This document shows positions 265-11,083 of a stretch of 11,083 bases of DNA, piece after piece (within the stretch, counting starts at the first letter, position 1; every line of letters begins with the position of its first letter). The position numbers and the translations under genes were made by a program. Under the pieces are notes generated by a model. That model was not told the origin of the DNA, did not search any database, and worked only from the letters and a program-made list of their open reading frames with translations. Origin of the DNA: Deinococcales bacterium (GTDB taxonomy: Bacteria > Deinococcota > Deinococci > Deinococcales > JAAFIG01); contig JANNVX010000094.1 in the NCBI GenBank assembly GCA_031414595.1, positions 1 through 11,083 on the forward strand, given 5' to 3'.

Positions 265-786
265 TTACTTAATATCTGGAGTGAATAAGTTTTTTAAGAC
301 CACTGCCCCAGACGGTGACATGATGCCTAATCCACCACTATTGGGTGAAGTCACCAACCATTTTTTGACGGCGCTGTCCGAAACAGCTTCGTTTAACCAT
401 ACGGGTAAACCGACACTGGGATAATTAAAATTCTTATTGATAGGATTTTCGCTTCTCGGGAAAGACAGTGCCAAAGTACAAATCAGGCTTAGCCCAAGGA
501 TAAACCCACCTAAGCCACCAGCCGCTTGGTTGGCAAAATCAGATAGATTCTGCATCAGATCATTTAATAAATTGCGCCCGAGCATCGAAATCAGTGTTCC
601 GAATCCTAGTGCCAGTACAAAACCAATCAGGGGGTGGATACCACCAAAAACATTGACCACCAACCACAACAATAAACTCAGGATTGCCGCCACCAATCCC
701 AGCAGCCCACGCCGAGCGCCAAGCACCACAATGCCAGCCAGCAGCGTCACCAATACCAAGTCTAACCATGTTAAATCAAGCGTCAT
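265..786 (-). CDS. CvpA (colicin V production)-family membrane protein
   Basis: 173 aa. N-terminal 'WLDLVLVTLL...LGARRGL' and later 'NQAAGGLGGFILG' match CvpA-type motifs; several hydrophobic helices. TAGAAT box 7 nt before the ATG. Confidence 0.75.
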   Translation of the reverse strand: MTLDLTWLDLVLVTLLAGIVVLGARRGLLGLVAAILSLLLWLVVNVFGGIHPLIGFVLALGFGTLISMLGRNLLNDLMQNLSDFANQAAGGLGGFILGLSLICTLALSFPRSENPINKNFNYPSVGLPVWLNEAVSDSAVKKWLVTSPNSGGLGIMSPSGAVVLKNLFTPDIK

Positions 787-2713: not shown

Positions 2714-4048
2714 TCACCGAATTTCATCGGCGGCACGTTGACCACTTTGTAAAGCCCCATGCACGGTTGCCAAATGCGCCCGAGAAGTGGCTTCGCCAGC
2801 AAAATGCAGTCTGCCAATTGGGGCGGCTAAACCAGCAATATCGGCAGGTGTGCTGCCCGCTTGCAGACTCGAGTAACTGCCCCAAGTCAACGGGTCGTTG
2901 CTCCAGCGCGTTAAAAGACTGGCGCTAGGCTCTGGGATTTTACCAAACATGGTTCTTAGGGTTTGCAGCGCACTCGAGACCACAGATGTTTCGTTTTGTT
3001 TGGCAAAGCCTCGAGCCACGCTGCCTGCATTAAACATTACCAGTACAGGTTCGCCAGTCACGGCGCTTAAATCATAGGTTTCTGCCCATTGCCCACGGGT
3101 CTGCCCAATAAAAGCGATTAAGTCGGCTTCGGCATCTGCCCAAAAATTCTTAGGAAAACGTAAAATCGTTTTGTCCAGCACCCCAAAACCGAGGTTGCTA
3201 ATGGCTCGAGTCTTGGCGGCGGATAATTCTGGAATAAATTTTATCGCACCACGTTTTAGCACCCCAAGCGGCACGGTGATAATCGCTTCAGTTGCTTCAA
3301 AAACTCCTTGGTTGGTGGTAATTTTCACGCCGCCAGCATTGTACTCGACACTCGAGACGATGGTTTCAAAACGAATCTCTTGCCCTCGAGCCAGAATTTG
3401 TGGGATTTGACTGTAGCCTTTTTGAAGCATTAAGTCGTCGCCTTGGTCTTCGTCGCTGTCATCATAAAACCGCGTCGAAAGATTCTCGACATCCTCAGCG
3501 TACTCATGTTCGATATTGGCATTGATGCTGTACTCGAGATTCCTGTCCTGCATGGCATTTAAGCGCAGACTGGGTTTTACAGCGTTGATCGTGCTGCGTA
3601 AATTCTGGCTCGAGTCATCACGGCTTGGGTGATTGTCTATTCGTTCGGTCAGGTCTTCAAACTGCGTTTCGATTTCTTGTTCAAGCCGCGATGAAATTTC
3701 GCCTTGTTCGTTAAAAGTTGTGACCCGTTCAAAATCGGTGATTCTGGTACTGAGGTTATTTTGTTTTGCCATCGTTGCAATCGGATTATTTTTTGTGCCA
3801 TGAATCCATTGTGCGCCCATCTCGAGCGGAAAACCCAGTCGTGAATCTGTCCAGACACGCCCACCAATGCGGTTACGAGCCTCGAGAATCAGCACTCGAG
3901 CGCCCCTTGCCGTTAGGCGTTGAGCGGCGGCTAAGCCCGCCACGCCAGCCCCAACAATAATCACATCGGGTTTAGCTTGTGCCACAGCGTGGGCAGAAAA
4001 AGGCAACACAGCCGCCAGTTTAAGCAGGTCTCGGCGATTAAGGCTCAT
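2714..4048 (-). CDS. Flavin-containing monoamine/polyamine oxidase family protein with a Tat signal peptide
   Basis: FAD-binding 'IIVGAGVAGL...LEARNRIGGR', 'GAQWIHG', 'TVPLGVLK' and C-terminal 'FAGEAT...TVHGALQSGQRAA'. N-terminus MSLNRRDLLKLAAVLPFSAHAVAQA is a twin-arginine signal. Start set at 4048 (TACACT at 4059-4054). Confidence 0.9.
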   Translation of the reverse strand: MSLNRRDLLKLAAVLPFSAHAVAQAKPDVIIVGAGVAGLAAAQRLTARGARVLILEARNRIGGRVWTDSRLGFPLEMGAQWIHGTKNNPIATMAKQNNLSTRITDFERVTTFNEQGEISSRLEQEIETQFEDLTERIDNHPSRDDSSQNLRSTINAVKPSLRLNAMQDRNLEYSINANIEHEYAEDVENLSTRFYDDSDEDQGDDLMLQKGYSQIPQILARGQEIRFETIVSSVEYNAGGVKITTNQGVFEATEAIITVPLGVLKRGAIKFIPELSAAKTRAISNLGFGVLDKTILRFPKNFWADAEADLIAFIGQTRGQWAETYDLSAVTGEPVLVMFNAGSVARGFAKQNETSVVSSALQTLRTMFGKIPEPSASLLTRWSNDPLTWGSYSSLQAGSTPADIAGLAAPIGRLHFAGEATSRAHLATVHGALQSGQRAADEIR

Positions 4049-4121
4049 AAAACAGTGTACTTTTTTTGCCAATTATCAGTGTGAGGGATTAAAAATTTGT
4101 TTGTATTCAACTATTTTGTGC

Positions 4122-4149
4122 TTGTAAACTCTAAAACTTCTGCTACACT
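4122..4149 (+). promoter_or_regulatory. sigma70-type promoter for the leaderless antitoxin/PIN operon
   Basis: TTGTAA (4122-4127), 16-nt spacer, extended -10 TG-c-TACACT (4141-4149), ATG 6 nt downstream at 4156. Confidence 0.55.
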
Positions 4150-4155
4150 AAAATC

Positions 4156-4404
4156 ATGATTGCAATTCATTCCAAAACCCAACAAATCATTTTGGAATCC
4201 CTCGAGCAAATCGAACCAATAGCGATTCTGCGAGATGGTCTGATTACAGGATATTACGTGCCTGTTATTCCGAATCATGCGGACACACAGGCAATACGGG
4301 CATCATCTGAGGTGATGCAGCAATGGCTCGAGGCTCGAGGGATTCGTGAGGACGATGTTCTGGCTGATTTTAATTCATTGCGTAAAAATCAACACTCTGC
4401 ATGA
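4156..4404 (+). CDS. Phd/YefM-like antitoxin
   Basis: 82 aa. 'PIAILRDG..TGYYVP' and the C-terminal 'GIREDDVLADFNSLRK' resemble Phd-type antitoxins paired with PIN toxins. Its stop overlaps the PIN start (ATGA 4401-4404). Confidence 0.7.
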   Translation: MIAIHSKTQQIILESLEQIEPIAILRDGLITGYYVPVIPNHADTQAIRASSEVMQQWLEARGIREDDVLADFNSLRKNQHSA

Positions 4405-4610
4405 AACGTATTGTTATAGATGCCAACGTTTTGATTCGAGCTATTCTTGGAGTTCGAGTCGCTGGACATATCGCACAGCACGCAACTACGGTACAATTCT
4501 TGTGTTGGCACTTTGCCTAGGAAGGACGCACCAATACTGGGGCAAGATTGGTATCGGGATGCACTTGGCACATCACTTTACAATCTTCAAACAAGATGAA
4601 ACAATAGAAT
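4401..4610 (+). pseudogene. Decayed PIN-domain (VapC-like) toxin
   Basis: 4401-4520 translates to MKRIVIDANVLIRAILGVRVAGHIAQHATTVQFLCWHFA*, a typical PIN N-terminus (IDAN motif) that stops at 39 aa. Pieces resembling the PIN C-terminus (VLALCL, DAPI, GIG, TW) follow in shifted frames. The right boundary is approximate. Confidence 0.7.
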
Positions 4611-4865
4611 TCCCAAACGACAGCAAAAACCTACAATTTGTAGATAACCTCAAAGACATAAAACCAAGCGAACTCAATGGTACAGGTACAATCGCGGTAC
4701 TCAAATTCACAAATCAAATGAATATGGGCAAAGAAATATTCTCGGTTATCCCCTCGAGTAAACGTTCTAAGTGAATTTGCGGTATCTTTGAGTGCAATGA
4801 AGTTTTCACTCGAGTTGGCAGCAAAAAGCGTCCGTAGGTTTACAAGGGCATAGTTGAATGTCAAA

Positions 4866-5618
4866 TTATAGAGCGTCGAAAAAATCTTTTGCGTCCATTC
4901 CAATATGTTTTATTCCCTGCGTCTTCAAAAAGTCCTGCACTTGAGCATTGAGTGGTTTGCGTGTAACTGCATACCTAGGCGGACGAGCATTACCAAGTGC
5001 TTGATGGAGTTGTTTTTCAATCCAAGTGATGTTCGAGCGTCCAAAACCAAAACCCACATAAACCATTGAGTGGGTTTTAGCCATTTCAATGTATTCCAAA
5101 AACAATGCGGGTTGTGAAACCAAAGCACAGTCCATTTGAAGTTGAGTCAGTGCCAAAGGCGGTTGGTTCATGCCAATATGAGCGATACAGCCGTGCATCT
5201 TGAGATACAGCGTGCCTAGATTCTTTGGTTTTTGCCCTGAAACCCAAGTGACCAATGGCTTTTTAGACTGCTCATAGGAGCGTTCAAGCACCAGATTGTA
5301 ATTGGTTGTAGCAATCATTGCCCAATTTTGCTTGGGGATTTTGAAATGGAAATCGTTTGGAATAAGGTTCTCGAGATAATTAGCAATAAATGCCTCGACC
5401 ACATCGCGCCCATGCAGACTTTCGGCAAACGCACTGACCGACTCGAGTGTATCTCCAACTATACCGAATTCGGTTGTTAATTTTTCTTGTAGCTCTTTAC
5501 CTGTAAGCGGAGGTTTAAGCAGGTCTCTGCTCAGCGCACCTGCGGTTGCGCCAGACCCAAGAAACAGCACCACTTTGCCAGCCTTAATATCCGCTTGCAA
5601 TTGTGTAGGAATGGTCAT
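4866..5618 (-). CDS. Stand-alone SIR2-like (SIR2_2) domain protein with non-canonical motifs
   Basis: 250 aa. VVLFLGSGAT, IATTNYN, YLKMHGC and MVYVGFGF correspond in order to the SIR2-like GAGxS, TTNYD, KxHG and GYS motifs. Confidence 0.85.
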   Translation of the reverse strand: MTIPTQLQADIKAGKVVLFLGSGATAGALSRDLLKPPLTGKELQEKLTTEFGIVGDTLESVSAFAESLHGRDVVEAFIANYLENLIPNDFHFKIPKQNWAMIATTNYNLVLERSYEQSKKPLVTWVSGQKPKNLGTLYLKMHGCIAHIGMNQPPLALTQLQMDCALVSQPALFLEYIEMAKTHSMVYVGFGFGRSNITWIEKQLHQALGNARPPRYAVTRKPLNAQVQDFLKTQGIKHIGMDAKDFFDAL

Positions 5619-5624
5619 GGGCTA

Positions 5625-5652
5625 ATTGTAGGGCAGTCAAGCATTTTGTCAA
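5625..5652 (-). promoter_or_regulatory. Near-consensus sigma70 promoter for the SIR2-like gene (leaderless)
   Basis: Minus strand TTGACA (5652-5647), 16-nt spacer, TACAAT (5630-5625), ATG 6 nt downstream at 5618. Confidence 0.7.
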
Positions 5653-5679
5653 CGCATGAACGCACGATTCGTGAAAATT

Positions 5680-5719
5680 TGCTATGATTTTCCTCACAAA
5701 CTAAAAAGTAAAGCGGGAG
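5680..5719 (+). promoter_or_regulatory. Extended -10 promoter and Shine-Dalgarno for the nitrilase-patatin operon
   Basis: TG-c-TATGAT at 5680-5688. GGGAG at 5715-5719, before the ATG at 5724. Confidence 0.5.
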
Positions 5720-5723
5720 TGAT

Positions 5724-8291
5724 ATGACGAACGGAACTGACCAATCTGGGACTTCTAAGCCACTTGATTCAAACACCAAAGCCAATCTAAAAACTGCGGT
5801 GCGAACATATTGGCAAGTCATGGAAATGCTGATTAGAAGCCGCAAAAGCGCTTTTAAGAAAGATGGCGATGATGATACTCAAGAAAAATCCATAGACAAA
5901 TCTGATTATGAAAACTGGGAGTATTGGCTCGAATGGTCACCAGATGTTTTTGCACTGACATCGCTGATTCTCGAGACCACTGGCTGGTATCGGGATATGC
6001 CAGACAATGATTTTGCTAAACACCCAATACCAAAAAATGCAAAAGTTGAATGGAAGCACATTCGTAGAGCGTGGCTGGCTTTGATGTCTGGCGAGTTGAC
6101 TAGAATTTTGATAGACAACAAAGTAATTTCTCGAGGTGACGACGAGTTAAAATCCGTCCTATCAAACCTCGAAGAGTTTGATAAAGGTAAACCAAACACA
6201 GCCTTAGAAAAAATACTTTTGGATGAAGAGCATGAGGGGCAAGAAGATTTCCCTACATTGGTACTAGAAGCAGTCAAATACATTAAAAAAATAATTTCCG
6301 AACTGCATCAGACTTTTACCAACCAGAACATAAAATTGAATAAGGGTGAGTCCTCTGGCAGTTGGGAAAAAGATATACGCGATAAAATCTTCTGGCTTCA
6401 TGCTGCTTCAGATGAAGCCTCTAAGAATTTTGGTTTTATGAGTGGTGGACATGGGCATTGTACCATCGTTAAATTTCTTGCCCACAGCTTTCTTGAAATT
6501 CGTGGTTCTTTGTCGCGGATTGATAGGCACTTTGGTGTCGTACTGCCAAAAATGCGTACCCCACAGGTCGGACTAACTTTGCGGAGCGCTTCACACCACT
6601 TGTGTTTTTGTCGCTCAGAGGTTATAACCACTTGGCGCACTTTTCCGTGGATTGGAAATACAGAACGTGAAATGAGCGTTTTGCTTGTACCGTATCCAGC
6701 AACTTTTCAACGTAACGCCATAAAACCAGTTGTGCCTAAATCAAAACCTGCTGATGGTTATGGATATTTTACTTACGAACCAAAACCTGACCAATCTGGT
6801 ACTGCTGCTGTTCAGTACGTTAAAAGTTTGCTCGAAAAGGCAGAAGAAGAAATAAATAAATCCATTGATGTTATTTTAATGCCAGAATTATCGTTAAGCC
6901 CTGAAGAATTCGAGCAAATATTAGCCTTTTTAGAGCAGCACGGTACTAAAGGAGATACGAAAACTCCGCCAGTTCTGATTGCAGGGGTTCGTGGATTTTT
7001 ATCCAAATCACCTGACTGTAAACAGCAAGATGATACACAAGATAAACAAGGTCAAAACATCGTCTATGTCGCCGCTTATTTCTACGACCAGTGGTGTGTT
7101 TATGAGCAACATAAGCACCATCGCTGGATGCTCGAGAAGCAACAAATCAATCAGTATAAGTTGACCCTGCCAACCAACAAAAAGTATTGGGAAAATATCG
7201 AGATTCCGAGTCGCAACGTTACTTTTTTTATGCCAAACCCGTGGCTCTGCCTCTGCCCACTTATTTGCGAAGACTTAGCCCGAAGCGAGCCAGTCTCGAG
7301 TTTAATCCGTACCGTTGGACCGAACTTGTTGGTAGCGCTGCTGCTCGATGGACCTCAACTCAAGGAACGCTGGTCGGGACGATATGCGGCTGTTTTTGCC
7401 GATGACCCCGGTTGTAGCGTGATTACCCTGACCTCGCTTGGTTTTGTTGAACAAGTCAGGTACAGCGACCAAGTGCCGAACAGAACCATTTCTTTGTACA
7501 AACAAAACGATGGCACAACCCTGCCTATTTTGCTCCACGAAAACGAAAGTGGTGCAATTATTACCCTAAAGGCAGTATCGGAAAAAGAATTTAGTGTGGA
7601 TGGGCGTAGTGATGAAGGAATTGCTAGTTATATCAGAATTCAAGACCCAAGAGTATTGCCGATTGCAAAACCAAATGACTCAGAGGTGACCTTAGATACT
7701 AAAATAGTCCCCCAAAACTATAGTGGCTATAGCATTACCGAGCAAATGACCATAACATTGCTTTCAATTTGTACAGATGTTTGTTTGGAAGCAACAAAAG
7801 AAGTCTTAGAGGATGTAGAGGCAATAATATTACAACGTAATGATTTTAATCTAAATACATGGCAACCGAAAACACATTGTACGCCAGCCATTGCAAAATT
7901 TGTTGCAAAAGAAATTCAAAGCAAACTACTAGATTTTTTGAAAAAGGAAGATGATATTGAGAAAGAAAGTAAATGGGTGACTCGATTAGAAATTCTATTG
8001 GCATTTATAAGACAAGCCTCTGATCAACAACCTCGAGATTGGAATGCAAGAAGACAACAGTGGGATAACTTGGTCGAAAGCCTGTCCAAAAATGACGCTG
8101 ATCCGCTTGTAAAAAAATTAGTCTATTGGACTATTCATAACCGTTTAGACTTTTATAAGTCCCAGCCTCGGCATTTGGAAAAACCAGATGAAGATACAGT
8201 GAATAAAGAATTAGGTAAGATTTATTCAGAATTCTACAAGATATACGAACCTCAAGCACACAAATCAGCTTCACTTGAGGGCAGTAAATGA
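5724..8291 (+). CDS. Large carbon-nitrogen hydrolase (nitrilase-fold) domain protein with uncharacterised N- and C-terminal regions
   Basis: 855 aa. Triad-like motifs in nitrilase order: DVILMPELSL (E388), YEQHKHH (K464), PLICEDLA (C515). About 300 aa N-terminal and about 210 aa C-terminal extensions are not recognised. Confidence 0.75.
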   Translation: MTNGTDQSGTSKPLDSNTKANLKTAVRTYWQVMEMLIRSRKSAFKKDGDDDTQEKSIDKSDYENWEYWLEWSPDVFALTSLILETTGWYRDMPDNDFAKHPIPKNAKVEWKHIRRAWLALMSGELTRILIDNKVISRGDDELKSVLSNLEEFDKGKPNTALEKILLDEEHEGQEDFPTLVLEAVKYIKKIISELHQTFTNQNIKLNKGESSGSWEKDIRDKIFWLHAASDEASKNFGFMSGGHGHCTIVKFLAHSFLEIRGSLSRIDRHFGVVLPKMRTPQVGLTLRSASHHLCFCRSEVITTWRTFPWIGNTEREMSVLLVPYPATFQRNAIKPVVPKSKPADGYGYFTYEPKPDQSGTAAVQYVKSLLEKAEEEINKSIDVILMPELSLSPEEFEQILAFLEQHGTKGDTKTPPVLIAGVRGFLSKSPDCKQQDDTQDKQGQNIVYVAAYFYDQWCVYEQHKHHRWMLEKQQINQYKLTLPTNKKYWENIEIPSRNVTFFMPNPWLCLCPLICEDLARSEPVSSLIRTVGPNLLVALLLDGPQLKERWSGRYAAVFADDPGCSVITLTSLGFVEQVRYSDQVPNRTISLYKQNDGTTLPILLHENESGAIITLKAVSEKEFSVDGRSDEGIASYIRIQDPRVLPIAKPNDSEVTLDTKIVPQNYSGYSITEQMTITLLSICTDVCLEATKEVLEDVEAIILQRNDFNLNTWQPKTHCTPAIAKFVAKEIQSKLLDFLKKEDDIEKESKWVTRLEILLAFIRQASDQQPRDWNARRQQWDNLVESLSKNDADPLVKKLVYWTIHNRLDFYKSQPRHLEKPDEDTVNKELGKIYSEFYKIYEPQAHKSASLEGSK

Positions 8292-10810
8292 GCCACACGG
8301 TGCCGCGTCATACGGTGCGTTTTTCTACGGTGATGTTTGGTGGAACAAGCCTAGCAATTTACATGAGCGGTGTCGCCCAAGAATTACTGCACCTGACTCG
8401 AGCTACCCAAAAAACCTTTGGAGAATGTTCTGACCTCGAGAAACAGTATTTTCATATCGCCAATTTGTATGGACATTTCCGTCAACATGAAAATAAAGAC
8501 TTACCAGTACAAATGCTAAAGTGTACAGATTCTCAATACGCCAGCGCAGAATTTATCGTTGATATTCTAAGTGGTACTTCGGCAGGTGGATTAAACGCCT
8601 CTTTTCTGGCTCGAGCCTTGGTGATGGGTGGGGATTTAGAAGTATTGACTACAGTCTGGGCAAAGCAAGGAGGTGCGGCGGAATTACTGCAAGCACCAAA
8701 AGCAGCCAAGTGTTCGTTTTTTGATGGCGATAAATTTTTCCAAGAAATTTATAAAGCATTAGACCAGATTAAAGGTGAGTATCCAGTTAATTACAGGGTT
8801 GATTTGTTTAACACCGTAACCGACCTTCAAGGTATCAACCGTAAACTGCCTTTGATTAACCGCAACGAATTGGTTCATACCCATTTATTCCATTTCCGCT
8901 ATTCGCCTAGTGCAGCCTCTGACCCTTTTGCAAATACTACCATGCTTGCCTATGCCAGTAGGGTTAGCGCTGGAATTCCACCAGCATTCAGTACCCTTTC
9001 CCTAAAAGAAGCCTATGCACTAAACGGTAGTTCAGAATTGTTAAACGGCAACTTATTTCCAAAAGAATTAAAAGATAAATTTGCAATACGCCGATACAGC
9101 GATGGTGGTATTTTGGACAATAAACCTTTTGGTGCTGCGATTAAGGCCATGAAAAATAGCTATGGCGTTGGGCGTAGGGTTTTGATTTATCTCGAGCCAA
9201 TAGGAGAAGCATCAATAGCACAAAGCCCCGAAAATAATCCAACCCATCCCTTTTTTGACCTGCTTAAAAGTGGTTTAGACATTCGTCAAAAAGAAAATAT
9301 TCGCACCGATTTAGAGCAGTTAGAAAGAATAAACATATTGGCTCAACACCTTCAAAAAACAGAAGCATATATTTTAGGAAAAGTTGAGCTTACAAGAATT
9401 AAAGACTTTGAAAAATCATCTCTGGACGATATGGTCAAGGTCTATGGGATGGGTTATCCGATGTACCATAAACTTAAACTCGATTTGGTACTCAATTGGT
9501 TAGCCCAACGGATGGCTCATGTTTTTGACGACAGCCAAACCTTAAAGCAGATTCAGAATCAATTACAAGATTGGTACACACGTCACTACAGCGATAACGG
9601 GGAAGATAACAAATTATTTGCAAACACTTTCTTAAATGACTTTGATGTTCTATTTAGAATTCGCCGTTTAGTGAGCTTGCGCGACGTAGTGCGGCGCGAA
9701 TATTTGAAGAATGCCACCGAGGAACATAAACAGCTATACAACGACCTCGAGCGCTATATCCAAATATGGGACAACGTAGATGAAAGAATCCAAAATGACC
9801 CGAAGTGCAGGGAGGCAATCCAGGCATTTTTGCAAACCGAAAAGCCTACGGCAGACGCTCTTAACACACTAAAAGTTCTCATCGAAAAAACTCGCCAAGA
9901 TGTGTCCGAGTCACTTAAAAAAACATTAAAACTGGACAAAAATAACCTCAATAATCCAACTTCTTTTCTAAAGCATTACTTGAGTTCTAATCACATCGAT
10001 ATGGTGCTGCTGCCAGCCGCCGCAACTTTGGGGGATGAGCGGTTAATTCCAATAGATGTCTGGCGAATTGGGACAGAAGAAGCCTCAACAAGAAAATTTG
10101 AGCCACCAAAATTAGCGGGGGTACAATTGGCATTTTTCGGGGCTTTTTTTCGTACAGAATGGAGGTTAAACGATATTTTGTGGGGTAGGTTGGATGCCAG
10201 CGAGATTCTGGTCAAGCGATTATTTTCCTATGAAACTTTGACTGAACCTCAACAGCATCAACTGGATAAAGTTATTGAAAACCTACAAAATGCCATCTGG
10301 ATAGATTTTTGGAACAGCATCAGCCGCGACAAAGACATGAAAACAAAATTCACCGAGCTATACACAAGTGCAGGAGACAACACAAACCTTGATACTGTTT
10401 TAGCAAGCCGACTGGACGAAATGTCACTAGACGCTAGAAAAGACATGAAAACGCTGGTGAAAGCCTTGCGTTTTTTACCAACGTTTTTTAATTTTACCAA
10501 GACTGGCTTAAAAATAGCCGATGGTCTTGCCACTACTTGGGTCAATTTTCAAAATGGAATGAGAACGTGGTTTGCTGTAAATATCATATTGACCGTATTT
10601 GTATTTTGTCTCAATTTGGGGCAGATTGCTCAGTATCTAGCCATTATGTTGTGGGCAGTGTGGTTTTTTATTTGTGGCACTCTTTTAGTGTGGCGCTTTT
10701 TGCCAACTTTGGTCGGGTTCTATTTTGGAATTGTCTTACCATTCTCAAAATGGATTAAAGCACTGCTTGCTAGAGAAGTTAAAAAGTCGATTCCTAGTGA
10801 TTTGTCCTGA
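8288..10810 (+). CDS. Patatin-like phospholipase with DUF3376-type region and C-terminal transmembrane helices
   Basis: 840 aa. Oxyanion loop GGTSLAIY, nucleophile GTSAG (S98), catalytic DGG (D272, YSDGGILDNKPF). The segment KLAGVQLAFFGAFFRTEWRLNDILWGRLDASE is DUF3376-type. Hydrophobic tail at about aa 760-820. ATGA overlap with the upstream gene. Confidence 0.88.
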   Translation: MSHTVPRHTVRFSTVMFGGTSLAIYMSGVAQELLHLTRATQKTFGECSDLEKQYFHIANLYGHFRQHENKDLPVQMLKCTDSQYASAEFIVDILSGTSAGGLNASFLARALVMGGDLEVLTTVWAKQGGAAELLQAPKAAKCSFFDGDKFFQEIYKALDQIKGEYPVNYRVDLFNTVTDLQGINRKLPLINRNELVHTHLFHFRYSPSAASDPFANTTMLAYASRVSAGIPPAFSTLSLKEAYALNGSSELLNGNLFPKELKDKFAIRRYSDGGILDNKPFGAAIKAMKNSYGVGRRVLIYLEPIGEASIAQSPENNPTHPFFDLLKSGLDIRQKENIRTDLEQLERINILAQHLQKTEAYILGKVELTRIKDFEKSSLDDMVKVYGMGYPMYHKLKLDLVLNWLAQRMAHVFDDSQTLKQIQNQLQDWYTRHYSDNGEDNKLFANTFLNDFDVLFRIRRLVSLRDVVRREYLKNATEEHKQLYNDLERYIQIWDNVDERIQNDPKCREAIQAFLQTEKPTADALNTLKVLIEKTRQDVSESLKKTLKLDKNNLNNPTSFLKHYLSSNHIDMVLLPAAATLGDERLIPIDVWRIGTEEASTRKFEPPKLAGVQLAFFGAFFRTEWRLNDILWGRLDASEILVKRLFSYETLTEPQQHQLDKVIENLQNAIWIDFWNSISRDKDMKTKFTELYTSAGDNTNLDTVLASRLDEMSLDARKDMKTLVKALRFLPTFFNFTKTGLKIADGLATTWVNFQNGMRTWFAVNIILTVFVFCLNLGQIAQYLAIMLWAVWFFICGTLLVWRFLPTLVGFYFGIVLPFSKWIKALLAREVKKSIPSDLS

Positions 10811-10967
10811 ATTACTTTAATGTCTGCTCGAGTTGCGAATCAGTTACCAACTTGATAACCTATTTGTATGGCAAGGGATTTATTTCATAATGCAGTTCGG
10901 CACGCGCTCGAGAAAGAACAATGGTTAATAACCAATGACCCCCTAAGGATTTGTCCCAGAATAACTT
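10793..10967 (+). repeat. Imperfect 25/26-bp direct repeat (possible IS/MITE ends)
   Basis: CCTAGTGATTTGTCC-TGAATTACTT (10793-10817) vs CCTAAGGATTTGTCCCAGAATAACTT (10942-10967): 21 of 26 aligned positions identical. Confidence 0.55.
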
Positions 10968-10984
10968 CCCGATTTCAAGAATAG
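10868..10984 (+). pseudogene. xisH: Truncated XisH-family (PD-(D/E)xK nuclease-like) gene
   Basis: Manual translation MARDLFHNAVRHALEKEQWLITNDPLRI matches the XisH N-terminus (A[KR]DxFHxAVRxALxKxxWxITxDPL). Similarity ends there, and the frame stops after 38 aa, well short of a full-length XisH. Confidence 0.8.
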
Positions 10985-11083
10985 TGTCATTCGGTTCTCG
11001 GTTTGGTAAAGTCATTTGAATGCAGACCTACTCACTAAAAGTCAAAAATATGATGTTACGGCTGTACCAGTCACTTAATGAAC

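Follow-up and report, generated by a model that had tools for sequence, protein, structure and literature searches.

To our knowledge, the nitrilase-fold enzymes of phage defence have so far been known only as a domain fused to class 3 reverse transcriptases (RTs). In the defence-associated reverse transcriptase system DRT1 the nitrilase domain is the effector and its substrate is unknown, as stated in excerpted text of one report (PMC13275509), and an extract of another lists CN-hydrolase among the domains fused to bacterial NACHT proteins (10.1101/2022.07.19.500537). Here we analysed an 11,083-nt stretch of DNA from a Deinococcales bacterium, hereafter the window, which is the entire contig JANNVX010000094.1 (C94) of the source genome (G000; GCA_031414595.1). 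Its block at 4866–10810 combines a 250-aa SIR2 protein (P0001), an 855-aa nitrilase-fold protein (P0002) and an 840-aa membrane-anchored patatin (P0003), and a preliminary description had proposed that the three genes form one anti-phage system. Our analysis indicated that the block is cargo of a horizontally acquired island and not a conserved three-gene system; at a probability of roughly 40%, we read it as a lineage-specific two-gene conflict module, formed by the nitrilase-fold enzyme and the membrane phospholipase, beside an independent SIR2 gene.

The 855-aa protein (5724–8291, plus strand) belongs to an unnamed family that profile libraries do not capture. Neither a Pfam family at E≤0.1, the CN_hydrolase model PF00795 included, nor any NCBIfam model matched it, and 26 of 27 relatives scanned against Pfam were likewise without any family, the exception having a PAS domain only. 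Across four libraries its sole match was PADLOC RT_UG5-nitrilase (E 8.8e-6, residues 362–493). Its fold was recognized from an AlphaFold2 model built from 26 sequences (predicted local distance difference test (pLDDT) 76, predicted template modelling score 0.84), the core of which aligned with 24 entries of the nitrilase superfamily at Z 13.2–16.5 in VIA, led by yeast Nit2 (4h5u_A; Z 16.5, root-mean-square deviation 4.4, 248 aligned) and including nicotinamide adenine dinucleotide (NAD) synthetase (3n05_B; Z 15.1), vanin-1 (Z 14.9) and Lnt (Z 14.3). Foldseek returned 89 matches at E≤0.001 for the same model, those to the nitrilase superfamily at E of about 1e-5, and by these comparisons the core resembles every nitrilase branch (Nit2, Nit4, aliphatic amidase, formamidase, NAD synthetase, vanin and Lnt). 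The catalytic triad, E388 in PELSL, K464 in KHHRW and C515 in LICED, is invariant in the 26 sequences. On the strength of the modelled alpha-beta-beta-alpha sandwich and the triad, we place the protein in the nitrilase superfamily, in a divergent branch that has no sequence model of its own.

The nitrilase-fold core (residues ~311–640; 6654–7643, plus strand) lies between two helical regions. The N-terminal helical domain (residues 18–260; 5775–6503, plus strand) carries the family-wide motifs WPPD.FALTS..L..TGAYR and LHA.ADEAC.GFG in the alignment, and its model (pLDDT 72.6) found no solved relative, with a best VIA Z of 5.4 and a best Foldseek E of 0.82. The C-terminal helical bundle (residues 671–849; 7734–8270, plus strand), delimited by the secondary structure of the model, gave generic helical matches only (Z≤10.2, VIA) and is confined to the long forms of the family: an open reading frame (ORF) of at least 700 aa was present in 17 of 81 related loci, and short forms of about 520–620 aa are without this domain. 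The 855-aa protein contains no hydrophobic 19-residue window on the Kyte-Doolittle scale. A family profile compared with the sequences of the PDB produced chance helical matches only (E≥0.17), and a protein atlas gave no usable match for residues 1–300 and, for the whole protein, unnamed clusters plus one with CN_hydrolase in 11% of its members.

Like DRT1 and the other class 3 UG-Abi RTs (UG1, UG5), the locus has a nitrilase-fold domain whose catalytic site is intact and whose setting is accessory and of conflict type, but no RT domain was found in the 855-aa protein or in the 13 scanned ORFs of the window; the flanking helical domains also differ, and the UG5 match, itself weak, takes in about a third of the core. 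With the bacterial NACHT/STAND proteins, as far as the excerpted account of their CN-hydrolase fusions goes, there is a shared link to STAND-type NTPases, two family members standing beside an AAA_16-TPR gene; here, however, the hydrolase is a separate protein, the window holds no NTPase, and the likeness is drawn at the level of the domain. Lnt and the vanin/biotinidase enzymes have the same fold at similar Z, with a possible membrane-lipid link through the patatin, but the 855-aa protein is without a transmembrane domain, and the similarity is no higher than to other nitrilase branches. The domains of the locus had been taken to fit no named system, and this was upheld: no PADLOC 2.0 model fits, the only matches being weak and at domain level (ThsA-type SIR2, UG5 nitrilase). 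We found no paper on the 855-aa family, on DUF3376 or on a defence combination of nitrilase, patatin and SIR2 in the open full-text literature, and PMC13069673 likewise held nothing of relevance.

The gene that follows on the same strand (8288–10810, 840 aa) encodes a TIGR03607/DUF3376 patatin-like phospholipase, as indicated by Pfam PF01734 and DUF3376 and by a TIGR03607 score of 318.3 bits against a cut-off of 262.45. Its Ser-Asp dyad (S98 in GTSAG at 96–100 and D272 in DGG at 272–274) is invariant in 27 sequences, and a hydrophobic C-terminal membrane anchor spans residues 757–817 (10556–10738, plus strand), with Kyte-Doolittle 19-residue windows of up to 2.23; the SIR2 protein, like the 855-aa protein, contains no such window. 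No relative exceeds about 32% identity, the gene occurs in 0 of 18 genomes of the family to which the source genome belongs, and no PADLOC model matched the patatin at E≤0.1. It shares with CapV of the cyclic oligonucleotide-based anti-phage signalling system (CBASS) a patatin fold with a Ser-Asp dyad and the role of a presumptive membrane-damaging effector; in contrast to CBASS, no cyclase domain was detected in the scanned ORFs of the window, and this patatin is of the TIGR03607/DUF3376 type with an anchor of its own.

The stop codon of the 855-aa gene overlaps the start codon of the patatin gene (AAATGAGCC at 8286–8294, with ATGA at 8288–8291), and a Shine-Dalgarno-like GAGGG run lies just 5' of the overlap. 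Because of these two features we infer translational coupling of the pair, which would probably be co-transcribed and whose products may be coupled physically or functionally; a complex prediction with patatin residues 1–745 and residues 660–855 of the 855-aa protein scored 0.00 and carries no weight either way on binding. The gene structure had been given correctly in the preliminary description: three ORFs free of internal stops, the 105-bp divergent spacer and the ATGA overlap all lie where it put them. Equally, profiles, the fold model and the hydrophobic C-terminal stretch agree with the identities it had assigned (SIR2, nitrilase fold, DUF3376 membrane patatin), and the catalytic residues it named are borne out, the full sets present in the three proteins being N106/H142, E388/K464/C515 and S98/D272.

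In the two-gene module that we favour, the coupled 855-aa enzyme and membrane-anchored TIGR03607 patatin would form the core of an abortive-infection type of response. The helical domains of the 855-aa protein would restrain the enzyme and respond to an invader, after which its active site could attack an essential metabolite by hydrolysing an amide bond in it, or else transfer an acyl group, and the patatin would degrade membrane phospholipid. The SIR2 protein, which resembles the NADase head of single-gene sirtuins akin to the defence-associated sirtuins (DSRs), would most likely act, or decay, alone.

The SIR2 gene (4866–5618, minus strand) encodes a stand-alone SIR2_2 protein, matching PF13289 at E 2.3e-13 (50.9 bits against 24.5) over profile positions 2–141 of 141. 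Its motifs TTNYN (N106) and LKMHGCI (H142), whose Asn and His we take to be the catalytic residues, align with TTNYD and LKLHGCI of plasmid sirtuins. A word-based search of a 5.8-billion-sequence collection returned only the protein itself and none of similar length; among plasmids, 18 records were matched, and in 16 the match took in 80% or more of the protein. In the four plasmid records that were opened, the matches were single genes of 1,034–1,048 aa, annotated as SIR2 family proteins and flanked by insertion sequence (IS), toxin-antitoxin or restriction genes, and the protein aligned from residue 1 with their first ~230 aa at 28–34% identity. The remaining ~800 residues of these four sirtuins had no tblastn match in the window or in the whole genome. 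On an Acinetobacter plasmid, a carbon-nitrogen hydrolase family gene (L129:8344–9303) lies 3' of the 1,034-aa SIR2 gene on the opposite strand; this is the only other adjacency of SIR2 and a nitrilase fold that we saw, with the hydrolase placed by annotation alone.

The 105-bp divergent spacer (5619–5723) holds a GGGAG run ahead of the 855-aa gene and, on the minus strand at 5652–5625, a promoter-like TTGACA-16-TACAAT site that agrees at 11 of 12 positions and is the best in 4300–11083; such sites are overall not above chance (15 found, 14.4 expected). Only 6 nt separate its −10 hexamer from the SIR2 start codon, and the mRNA is therefore predicted to be leaderless. Leaderless messages are common in Deinococcus. 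Because of this promoter-like site and of the likeness to heads of single-gene sirtuins, the SIR2 gene looks like an independent unit and may encode a minimal NADase or be the head left over from a DSR-like gene. The comparison with DSR1/DSR2 rests on the N-terminal NADase domain of the plasmid sirtuins, which we infer to belong to that group; the ~800-aa C-terminal sensor is lacking in a protein of 250 aa, and NCBIfam Dsr2 scored 14.4 bits against 1,400. The protein is likewise set apart from Thoeris, whose ThsA joins SIR2 to a SLOG sensor domain and whose ThsB has a TIR domain, as PADLOC ThsA1 matched at E 2.9e-7 over positions 13–232 of a 478-position profile and no TIR domain was found in the scanned ORFs of the window, and from SIR2-HerA and SPARSA, there being no HerA helicase or short Argonaute among the same ORFs.

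To place the pair, we examined the distribution of the 855-aa family. A search of 1.84 billion representatives assigned 1,693 clusters to it at E≤0.001, or 1,190 at the stricter E≤1e-30, and a word-based search retrieved 551 proteins at E≤0.001 among 7,998 candidates, nearly all of them called hypothetical; the closest full-length relatives (P0004, P0005 and P0008) showed 33–34% identity over 85–90% of the length (BLASTP). Family members were found in 4 of 364 genomes of the phylum, the source genome included and only two with full-length matches, in none of seven genomes of the same genus or 18 of the same family, in 6 of 401 sampled Acidobacteriota genomes, on 12 of 72,556 plasmids and on three IMG/VR contigs. 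A single-protein scan of genome contigs found one locus only. From these sequence surveys the family is rare (1–1.5% of genomes), patchy and usually solitary, and appears to behave as an accessory or mobile gene.

Pfam and PADLOC were applied to 115 neighbours from 57 loci. Conflict- or mobile-type genes lay at most two genes away in 16 of the 57, a count made without a control set that is suggestive and not an enrichment. CHAT proteases occur near family members in two loci (L009, L013), an AAA_16 NTPase gene (L056) and a type I restriction subunit gene (L039) each overlap a family gene, and DarT-DarG (L011), PtuB (L058), a GajB-like helicase (L021), PDC-M30/M41 genes with a methylase (L063), an unrelated patatin (L006) and a MkoA-like kinase (L040) lie near others; three integrases, IS66, TrwC and RepA are the remaining mobile-type neighbours. 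The small ORFs seen beside many high-GC relatives were considered as a conserved operon and rejected, as they do not cluster.

More settings were seen in individual records. On plasmid pDAETH-2 of Deinococcus aetherius, with which contig C3 of genome G008 coincides, the family gene is followed after 59 bp by a gene for an AAA_16-TPR protein (L089:10000–12984) and then by VapBC. This NTPase, located downstream, is homologous to the one located upstream and overlapping in L056 (2267–5593; 32% over 513 residues, E 6e-35), so that its pairing with a family member in two unrelated records may be a recurrent two-gene unit. A plasmid of Agrobacterium sp. S7/73 carries a gene for a 753-aa protein (L090:3286–5547), without Pfam or PADLOC match, 13 bp ahead of a short-form member, the two facing genes for DGQHR-domain, radical-SAM and HATPase proteins. 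In Massilia a member lies near a PifA-like NTPase and an IS3 element, and in genome G710 a Dcm-Vsr pair overlaps the family gene; on two other plasmids with the family no conflict- or mobile-type neighbours were seen. One IMG/VR contig (L135) has a short-form member (5461–7194) between a phage integrase (1447–2661) and a CI-like S24 repressor (10862–11551) and ends in a terminase gpA fragment, a context that corresponds to a prophage lysogeny module.

The composition of the block marks it as foreign. Positions 4073–11083 have a guanine+cytosine (GC) content of 0.414 against 0.472 for the genome, at the 1.35th percentile of 1,115 seven-kb windows. The palindrome CTCGAG, which occurs 23,235 times in the 4.49-Mb genome (7.4 times the next palindromic hexamer), is present in 12 copies in the block, or 2.0/kb against 5.2/kb genome-wide (2.6-fold depleted; 0.9th percentile of 1,323 windows), and this is about twentyfold above the chance expectation of about 0.1/kb; the window as a whole has 35 copies against 1.1 expected (for example at 59–64, 4327–4339 and 10907–10912). 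Same-genus loci have 3.8–6.4/kb and a D. aetherius locus 0.05/kb. Since the density in the block lies below that of the genome and above chance, the block would be foreign but not recent, or would come from a donor lineage with a weaker version of the same signature. No paper linking the term highly iterated palindrome to CTCGAG was found in the open full-text literature. In the same genome several GC-rich palindromic hexamers are nearly absent (GGGCCC 0, TGCGCA 2, and CGATCG, CGCGCG and GACGTC 3 each), which suggests strong restriction avoidance.

The flanks agree with this setting. Left of the block, a native-sequence remnant at 4703–4814 is 78% identical to positions 9994–10103 of contig C251 in the same-genus genome G131, the 3' end of a 400-aa gene there, and because of this remnant the left island boundary is placed at about 4815–4865, at most 52 bp from the SIR2 stop codon. 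Further out in the native flank, an 82-aa antitoxin-like ORF (4156–4404, plus strand) without Pfam match is 97% identical in DNA to the same contig of G131 (window positions 4142–4409), where PadR and HAAS-like genes come next in place of the island genes. The foreign, variable nature of the island is thus borne out by composition, same-genus absence and the differing content of G131. The adjoining 39-codon ORF (4403–4519, plus strand), which it had labelled a decayed PIN toxin, had no Pfam match at E≤1, leaving the label unconfirmed. The truncated xisH reported on the right is real: 38 codons of about 134 remain (10868–10981, plus strand; Pfam XisH E 2.5e-9, profile positions 3–29 of 134), the gene being cut by a multi-copy IS-like element of 1,325 bp, of which the end (10943–11083) also closes the contig. 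Copies of this element that are 99–100% identical lie at nine other places in the genome; its depth is about 12-fold, and each of the four sequencing runs yielded it as a contig of 1,325–1,326 bp. The block 3500–10971 is contiguous and without any difference in contigs of these four runs, which come from one study and possibly are the source of the same DNA, and hence are not independent support. At the other contig end, positions 1–141 are also a copy of a multi-copy repeat, present at 17 other places; both terminal repeats recur at numerous ends of other contigs, they are not inverted copies of each other, and a 173-aa ORF without Pfam match (265–786, minus strand) lies between the left repeat and ruvX.

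How far the three genes belong together is decided mainly by their relatives. The integrated system of the preliminary description, in which the SIR2 protein, the amidase or both sense or process an NAD- or amide-derived signal and leave abortive infection to the patatin, would account for the adjacency across a shared divergent spacer, the low island GC common to all three genes (0.446 for SIR2, 0.411 for each of the others), the occurrence of all three domain types as known effector modules and the lack of a matching PADLOC system. Against this, the homologues do not co-occur, which the preliminary description had itself named as a sign of refutation: when the patatin and the SIR2 protein were compared by tblastn with 87 loci, only the two copies of the window matched, leaving 0 of 85 foreign loci (of the 81 analysed for neighbours, sequence of 2.5 kb or more was available downstream in 35 and upstream in 37), and no related patatin lay near the family member in five further Acidobacteriota genomes, where the patatin profile matched only twice, both times weakly and on a different contig of a single genome. 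One classical PF02146 Sir2 stands two genes from a family member (L010), and no relative of this SIR2 protein stands beside any member examined. The SIR2 gene, moreover, comes with a strong promoter-like site of its own, is most closely related to the heads of single-gene sirtuins of ~1,045 aa that work without such partners, and lies at the extreme island edge, with native sequence 52 bp away. A single three-gene system is accordingly very improbable; what stands of the preliminary description is an unclassified foreign locus of effector-type genes. A rather doubtful view, yet one better placed than the integrated system, goes to the opposite end and takes the three genes as unrelated cargo, the ATGA overlap as incidental and the SIR2 gene as the remnant of a DSR-like gene that has lost its sensor. 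It is favoured by the uniqueness of both trio and pair among everything examined, by the lack of any protein of this SIR2 length in the word search, by the alignment from residue 1 with the heads of the longer sirtuins and by the decayed surroundings (truncated xisH, IS-like repeat, possible toxin remnant), and is opposed by three intact frames with catalytic residues kept, by a SIR2_2 domain complete to the profile end and by the absence of any DSR C-terminal remnant from window and genome; the excess of CTCGAG in the block over chance also argues for a long residence during which the frames were kept open.

The pair itself could serve a purpose other than defence, namely as a metabolic cargo operon for amide-lipid or membrane-lipid remodelling in which an Lnt- or vanin-like amidase or acyltransferase acts with a phospholipase. 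The core matches Lnt and vanin-1 about as well as it matches amidases, the patatin is membrane-anchored, most family members lie among housekeeping or metabolic genes, with a convergent amidase gene in four loci, and the TIGR03607 patatins of one related family, present in 13 of its 128 genomes, show no evident defence link. We nonetheless consider such an operon unlikely, given that the 855-aa protein is devoid of any hydrophobic segment, that its family is rarer and patchier than core lipid metabolism would allow, that plasmids and a prophage lysogeny module are among the places where it occurs, and that the patatin partner is not conserved. The two-gene conflict module remains the reading that we prefer, and a good deal weighs against it as well. 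The window contains no sensor NTPase and no nucleotide cyclase; compact genomes show stop/start overlaps between unrelated genes too; the sequencing runs listed as carrying the block were four DNA runs of one study and no RNA run; and the family was found in none of 50,697 phage genomes. The failure of the patatin to recur in the 85 foreign loci and five Acidobacteriota genomes bears on the pair too, no neighbour family within three genes was shared by more than 4 of the 81 loci, the conflict-type neighbourhood was counted without controls, and in 41 of the 57 scanned loci the neighbours were housekeeping or unannotated genes only, such as those for adenylosuccinate synthetase, GatB and aspartokinase. 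The pairing may still be specific to a clade, as every relative examined is at most about 40% identical.

A broader proposal, which we put forward tentatively, is that the 855-aa proteins represent a new, RT-independent nitrilase-fold family of anti-phage proteins that use their helical domains as a sensor and act alone or paired with a STAND NTPase, a CHAT protease or a patatin. If so, the window would hold a two-effector abortive-infection module that strikes an amide metabolite and the membrane together. The adjacency of three effector-type domains on an island does not by itself make a system, and the trio is a candidate for testing rather than a recognised defence system. Should the family prove to be one of defence, it would add a new type of effector or sensor to the defence catalogue, and a large free-standing family with the catalytic machinery of the RT-fused domain, borne by plasmids, prophages and islands, would offer a second, simpler entry to the question of what the nitrilase domain acts on.

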